The notes beneath the pieces were generated by a model. It worked only from the letters and a program-made list of their open reading frames with translations. It had not been told where the DNA came from and searched no databases. From the sequence record PP541512.1: 39,615 nucleotides of DNA; one strand, given 5' to 3'. The first letter of the stretch is position 1. Each line of letters begins with the position of its first letter. Below, piece by piece: positions 13,301 to 13,345 of this stretch. Origin of the DNA: Escherichia phage PSK1. The position numbers and the translations under genes are program-made.

Positions 13301-13345
13301 TAGACTCAAGGTCATTACTATATGTAGTGGCCTTTATGGTTAACA
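13301..13345 (+). promoter_or_regulatory. RNase III-type processing hairpin (TAGACTCAAGGTCAT...GTGGCCTTTATGGTTAA)
   Basis: AAGGUCAU pairs with GUGGCCUU only with G-U wobbles, so the stem exists in + strand RNA only. One of three near-identical copies (also 22449-22492 and 29242-29282). Confidence 0.55.

Follow-up and report, generated by a model that had tools for sequence, protein, structure and literature searches.

The closest described counterparts of the elements analysed here are the RNase III sites of phages T7 and T3, those of T7 having been characterised by experiment. Site R1.1 of T7 serves as the standard substrate for enzymological work on RNase III (PMC1540722; PMC4858673), and T7 has five early RNase III sites (PMC4858673). 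In these substrates, internal loops confine the enzyme to a single bond, and the 3′ hairpins left behind are protective, and the rules for the proximal and distal boxes (inhibitory base pairs) have been set out (PMC1540722). In the T7 genome, R1.1 appears at positions 5846-5902, between the promoters phi1.1A and phi1.1B, with the sequence ACTCAAGGTCAT-TCGCAAGA-GTGGCCTTTATGATT, and seven out of ten T7 sites share the core (7 positions). Each of these seven cores ends 3 nt before the reported cleavage coordinate (Dunn and Studier 1983). A total of ten stem-loops are annotated as 'RNase III recognition site' in the T3 record AJ318471, with the same consensus as in the DNA analysed here. Regarding the genus Kayfunavirus, no paper on RNase III processing was found in the literature, RNase III is not mentioned in PMC5923468 and no RNase III sites are annotated in the RefSeq record of phage K1F.

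Genome setting of the PSK1 hairpins

The window, that is, the whole stretch of 39,615 nt from Escherichia phage PSK1 (PP541512.1) that was analysed, is a complete, circularly permuted T7-group genome whose nearest records are Kayfunavirus (K1F-like) phages (about 90% identity) and in which every long open reading frame (ORF) of the ORF list lies on the + strand. On this strand, PHROG profiles identified the genes of the small terminase (gene 18, 13033-13296), an Rz-like spanin (gene 18.5, 13398-13847), the large terminase (13844-15607), the ocr-like gene 0.3 (17417-17923), the RNA polymerase (19200-21881), gene 1.2 (22724-23011) and the DNA polymerase (29302-31473, with its ATG at 29302), while a gene 1.1-like ORF was located at 22542-22721, also on the + strand. 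The core of the phage RNA polymerase promoter (AACTATCACTATAGG) was present in eight exact copies, including that at 22433-22447, and in three more copies with one or two mismatches, which were also found ahead of genes, all of them on the + strand. The best sigma-70 match of the host-promoter region appeared at 16866-16895. Furthermore, a strong intrinsic terminator, consisting of a 13-bp stem and then a T run, was found on the + strand 3′ of the ligase gene (about 24085-24124). Placed after the ligase gene as TE is in T7, this terminator looks like T7 TE and would end the early transcription unit, including five of the hairpins described below.

Other features of this arrangement were observed. 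An exact copy of the promoter core at 19112-19126 immediately precedes the gene of the phage RNA polymerase (19200), where T7 has a host promoter and the RNase III site R1 instead, and it would let the phage RNA polymerase transcribe its own gene. Judging from the ORF sizes, no gene 0.7-type kinase is evident between gene 0.3 and gene 1 (17920-19200), as in K1F. The gene 0.7 kinase of T7 phosphorylates and stimulates RNase III (PMC4858673), so a phage without it would depend on unstimulated host RNase III. Moreover, the non-coding stretch from the terminase gene to the early region (15600-16700) is rich in short direct repeats (CCTACAGTC, GACCTAC, GATAGGT and similar ones) and has a promoter copy at 15706-15720, and it is probably the genome-end or terminal-repeat region of the permuted assembly.

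Hairpins matched by a covariance model of T7 and T3 sites

Three nearly identical + strand elements sharing the core AAGGTCAT-N-GTGGCCTT had been reported in the first-pass annotation, and all of them were confirmed in place, with the correction that the motif given from 22449 starts at 22450. The pattern AAGGTCAT-N(5-25)-GTGGCCTT had three matches in the window vs. 0.00 expected (100 shuffles), and both TAGACTCAAGGTCAT and GTGGCCTTYATGRTTA occurred exactly three times in the whole window, always on the + strand. The core of T7 R1.1 (ACTCAAGGTCAT..GTGGCCTTTATGATT) was an exact match for the three core-bearing sites.

A covariance model (model R1) comprising 18 base pairs was obtained from an alignment of 14 T7 and T3 sites, with no sequences from the window, and was used to search the window with the filters off. 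Exactly seven sites were found with E ≤ 3e−5, all seven on the + strand and between long ORFs, the lowest of them scoring 30.5 bits compared to 18 bits (E = 0.05) for the next match in the window. When the model was applied to T7 and T3, it returned the 14 training sites and both R6.5 sites, which were outside the training set, and nothing else with E < 0.1, and therefore its specificity is high. The seven matches were exactly the three elements mentioned above and a second set that had been described as a separate family (at 17018, 17341, 18070 and about 18400). Thus, this second set is real, being matched by a model trained on T7 and T3, but the two families are one and its members are variants of it. 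The extent of the elements also had to be revised, as they are real but longer than initially described. All seven sites aligned over their full length with the 18-pair model and presented, in both MFE and centroid folds, an irregular hairpin of about 57-65 nt (about two helical turns) with a lower stem of 6-8 bp, an internal loop, an upper stem of 10-11 bp and a small terminal loop.

No match at the gathering score was found with the Rfam 15 covariance models in the whole window, nor any match with E ≤ 1 around positions 13200-13450, and Rfam has no family for such sites. A loose regular expression allowing two mismatches per half-site yielded largely noise, the covariance model being used instead; one candidate of that expression (39487-39511) was unsupported by the model, as was a weak stem at 19120-19200, downstream of the promoter that precedes gene 1 (z of +0.4). 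A reading of the hairpins as terminators was rejected, as no T run follows them.

The R18.5 homologue was found at 13293-13352 on the + strand (58.0 bits, E = 1.5e−12), between gene 18 and gene 18.5, where R18.5 is also located in T3. Its fold (−23.4 kcal/mol, z of −4.6) has the lower stem GUGUUA/UAACAC and an upper stem at 13308-13334, and the alignment to T7 predicts a cut after 13337 (13337/13338), on the 3′ side of the internal loop. The R1.1 homologue at 22442-22501 on the + strand (48.5 bits, E = 4.9e−10) begins where transcription from the promoter at 22433-22447 starts, the 5′ arm of the hairpin opening the transcript, and has the gene 1.1-like ORF and gene 1.2 downstream; similarly, R1.1 of T3 overlaps the promoter phi1.1 upstream of gene 1.1. 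This site folds with −25.5 kcal/mol (z of −5.8) and the lower stem GG(A)UUA/UAACC, its predicted cut being after 22486 (22486/22487). Finally, the R4.7 homologue at 29234-29290 on the + strand (49.7 bits, E = 2.3e−10) has the ATG of the DNA polymerase gene 12 nt downstream, in agreement with R4.7 of T3, which is directly upstream of gene 5. It folds with −19.4 kcal/mol (z of −3.4) and the lower stem GGUCUA/UAGACU, and would be cut after 29276 (29276/29277). The three elements have a conserved asymmetric internal loop (GACUC / YAUGRU) and an upper stem of 10-11 bp, while the lower stems vary in sequence among the three copies but keep their complementarity. The core ACUCAAGGUC..GGCCUUUAUGAUU, the architecture and the strand are as in T7 (R1.1, R4.7 and R18.5, and also R0.3, R0.5, R1, R1.3 and R6.5), and the sites occupy the same gaps with respect to genes 1.1, 5 and 18.5. 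In contrast, the sequences of the lower stem and of the terminal loop differ from those of T7.

The other four sites, named E1 to E4 and all on the + strand, match the R1-type CAGG..CCUG variant known from R1 of T7 and T3. Site E1 (17009-17073; 30.5 bits, E = 2.7e−5), with this variant as in T7 R1, has an ORF downstream (17079-17333), and E2 (17332-17390; 35.6 bits, E = 1.2e−6) lies between that ORF and the ocr-like gene 0.3, which is the position of R0.3 in T7 and T3. Site E3 (18062-18118; 40.0 bits, E = 8.6e−8) was found between the ORFs at 17920-18069 and 18133-18360, and E4 (18419-18477; 30.5 bits, E = 2.8e−5) downstream of the latter. All five sites formed by E1-E4 and the one at 22442 are between the host-promoter region and the TE-like terminator, and T7 likewise has five sites in the early unit upstream of such a terminator. 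The window departs from T7 in having four sites interspersed with the small early genes, and none immediately ahead of gene 1 (R1 in T7) or of the gene for the ligase (R1.3 in T7). In fact, no R1-type hairpin was found upstream of gene 1 (19200) with either the covariance model or the folds. Overall, the sites in the window scored 30-58 bits vs. 42-69 bits for the T3 sites, which were training material of the model, and E1 and E4 (30.5 bits) were below all T7 and T3 sites (at least 40 bits).

Hairpins associated with promoters were also observed elsewhere in the window. A 12-bp stem (AAGGGCCUAUAG/CUAUAGGCCCUU) at 2263-2312 surrounds the phage promoter at 2284-2298, upstream of a gene 13-like ORF, and was not matched by the covariance model. 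It resembles R13 of T3 and T7, with the promoter in the loop, so the hairpin would appear in read-through transcripts only. Upstream of a gene 6.5-like ORF, a long hairpin (33125-33230), whose 11-bp stem has no mismatches (33134-33144 with 33211-33221), encloses a promoter (33181-33195) in a layout analogous to that of R6.5 in T7 and T3, although the conserved core is missing, whereas R6.5 of T3 keeps the core and has the promoter in the loop. In addition, a hairpin at 27265-27291 directly follows a promoter-like sequence (27253-27267), and CCCTTTGTTCGCA starts in its 3′ arm and extends beyond it. The same bases surround the cut site of T7 R3.8 (CCCTTT^GTTCGCA), and this hairpin, located ahead of the primase/helicase gene, probably corresponds to R3.8.

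Base pairing, strand specificity and relatives

The first-pass annotation proposed that the stem pairs only through obligate G-U wobbles, which was not the case: in the AAGGUCAU/GUGGCCUU stem, only two out of eight pairs are wobbles (U-G twice), the remaining six being Watson-Crick pairs. Among the 14 T7 and T3 sites, the first wobble position is U-G in 12 of them and C-G or G-C in two, and the second one is C-G in eight and U-G in six; this set is unbiased, while the frequency of G-U among the relatives is biased upward because their scan fixed part of the upper stem. Moreover, the wobbles are replaced by G-C or C-G in T7 R0.3, T7 R18.5 and E1. The wobbles are preferred, not obligate. As for the proposed strand specificity of the elements, the + strand RNA folds 3-11 kcal/mol better than that of the − strand at six of the seven sites (e.g. 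−19.3 vs. −9.8 kcal/mol for E3), so that the strand specificity is real. The exception was E1 (17009-17073), which folds better on the − strand and presents an entirely Watson-Crick upper stem, with no G-U pairs in its fold.

A covariance search across the genome and related phages had also been suggested, and once run it showed that the pairing is conserved. In the 14 T7 and T3 sites, 92% of the cells were paired, compared to 34-48% with the partners slid, and double-sided changes were found in 10 of the 18 pairs. Regarding the relatives (76 model matches, 67 of them distinct), 93% of the cells were paired vs. 26-48% with slid partners and 16 of the 18 pairs showed double-sided changes, in an alignment fitted to the covariance model and with loci partly chosen by a core pattern prescribing some of the upper stem. 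These relatives came from a pattern scan of viral contigs, which returned many unrelated contigs, and only the matches confirmed by the model were counted. Furthermore, the 76-nt region around the site at 13293 matched 775 phage records, all T7-like and with enterobacteria and Vibrio as hosts, and the phiYeO3-12 record labels one matching element as 'putative RNase III site'. The core and internal-loop sequence is nearly invariant in T7, T3, K1F and hundreds of phages of Klebsiella, Salmonella, Yersinia and Vibrio.

In K1F, the model matches were 36445-36504, 5565-5624, 12852-12908, 1029-1087, 706-770 and 1765-1823. The first of them, between genes 18 and 18.5, is identical to 13293-13352 in the window; that at 5565-5624 is of the R1.1 type and differs from its counterpart solely in the 3′ flank; and that at 12852-12908, upstream of gene 5, is a copy of 29234-29290. 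The match at 1029-1087, upstream of gene 0.3, is a copy of E2, and that at 1765-1823 is a copy of E4, while 706-770 is the counterpart of E1 with the loop inverted; the remaining non-identical K1F sites differ by a few bases. No copy of E3 was present among the model matches in K1F. In the phage vB_EcoP-U8, the same sites were found at the same positions.

With respect to E1, the stretch at 17024-17055 has a 9-bp stem that forms a perfect palindrome without any G-U pair, and its 14-nt loop (CAGATGTAGACTCA) is exactly the reverse complement of that in K1F (stretch 721-752) and vB_EcoP-U8 (stretch 15006-15037), which reads TGAGTCTACATCTG. The orientation found in the window also appears in vB_EcoP_LNA5 (100% identity) and probably in SR04 (98% identity), and that of K1F is the one in the majority of the Kayfunavirus records. 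This flip of the loop between inverted repeats suggests that the loop sequence is unimportant for function, and DNA-level events do happen at such palindromes.

Putative processing and alternative explanations

Taken together, the elements very probably serve as processing signals for the host RNase III in a K1F-like phage of the T7 group, and they are homologous to the T7 and T3 sites. The mRNA processing points put forward in the first-pass annotation remain putative but find support when the sequence, structure, strand, position and covariation of the sites are compared with the signals of T7 and T3. By homology with T7, we infer that the copies in the window are cut, which bond is broken and how the stability and translation of the messages are affected. 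All genes are transcribed from left to right on the + strand, giving long polycistronic RNAs in which each element folds into an irregular hairpin of about two turns, its lower and upper stems being separated by an asymmetric internal loop. The host RNase III would bind the double-helical part, and the internal loop would limit the enzyme to one strand, with the cut in its 3′ side (CCUU-YAU^GRUU, according to the T7 alignment). The upstream message would then retain a 3′-terminal hairpin, protecting it from 3′-5′ exonucleases, whereas the downstream message would gain a new 5′ end located some tens of nucleotides before the next ribosome-binding site.

Stable folds located 10-45 nt upstream of start codons could also act mostly without being cleaved, as stabilising or translational-control structures that block exonucleases or modulate the access to the ribosome-binding site, and bulge-helix-bulge motifs that allow RNase III binding but inhibit cleavage do exist (PMC1540722). 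Nevertheless, the copies share their internal-loop and flanking sequences with T7 R1.1, which is cleaved efficiently, the proximal and distal boxes of the three core-bearing sites being identical in sequence to those of this reactive T7 site, and nothing in the model alignment sets the copies in the window apart from T7 sites that are cleaved, which makes this explanation very unlikely. A role at the DNA level, in which the elements would be dispersed homology patches for recombination or module exchange, or protein-binding or origin elements, with the RNA fold being incidental, would account for 15-16 identical bases recurring three times per genome and across the 775 phage records. The location of the 22442 site in a region near which T3 has its primary origin and the flip of the E1 loop, which is a DNA-level event, also fit such a role. 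It is nonetheless highly improbable, considering that compensatory changes maintain the pairing, that G-U pairs make six of the seven sites strand-specific RNA structures and that all copies are intergenic and on the transcribed strand; given the covariation and the strand specificity, a role in recombination would be secondary at most. Chance repeats or an assembly artefact are excluded by three matches vs. none in the shuffles and identical sequences in independently sequenced phages.

Favouring RNase III processing as the main function leaves the fact that the core and internal-loop sequence is conserved beyond the known needs of an enzyme that reads structure. A second role of this sequence, as a site bound by a phage or host factor or as dispersed homology patches for module exchange among T7-like phages, is conceivable but improbable.

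These elements are of a known kind and have a known consensus, in an unremarkable relative of T7, the sole novelty being their annotation. Accordingly, seven RNA processing sites and the likely boundaries of the mature mRNAs can be marked in a K1F-like genome, which the reference records leave unannotated. Moreover, the model trained on T7 and T3, which gave clean matches in the relatives searched, could be used to annotate Studiervirinae genomes. For the biology of these phages, the finding confirms that RNase III punctuation as known from T7 has been kept in Kayfunavirus.
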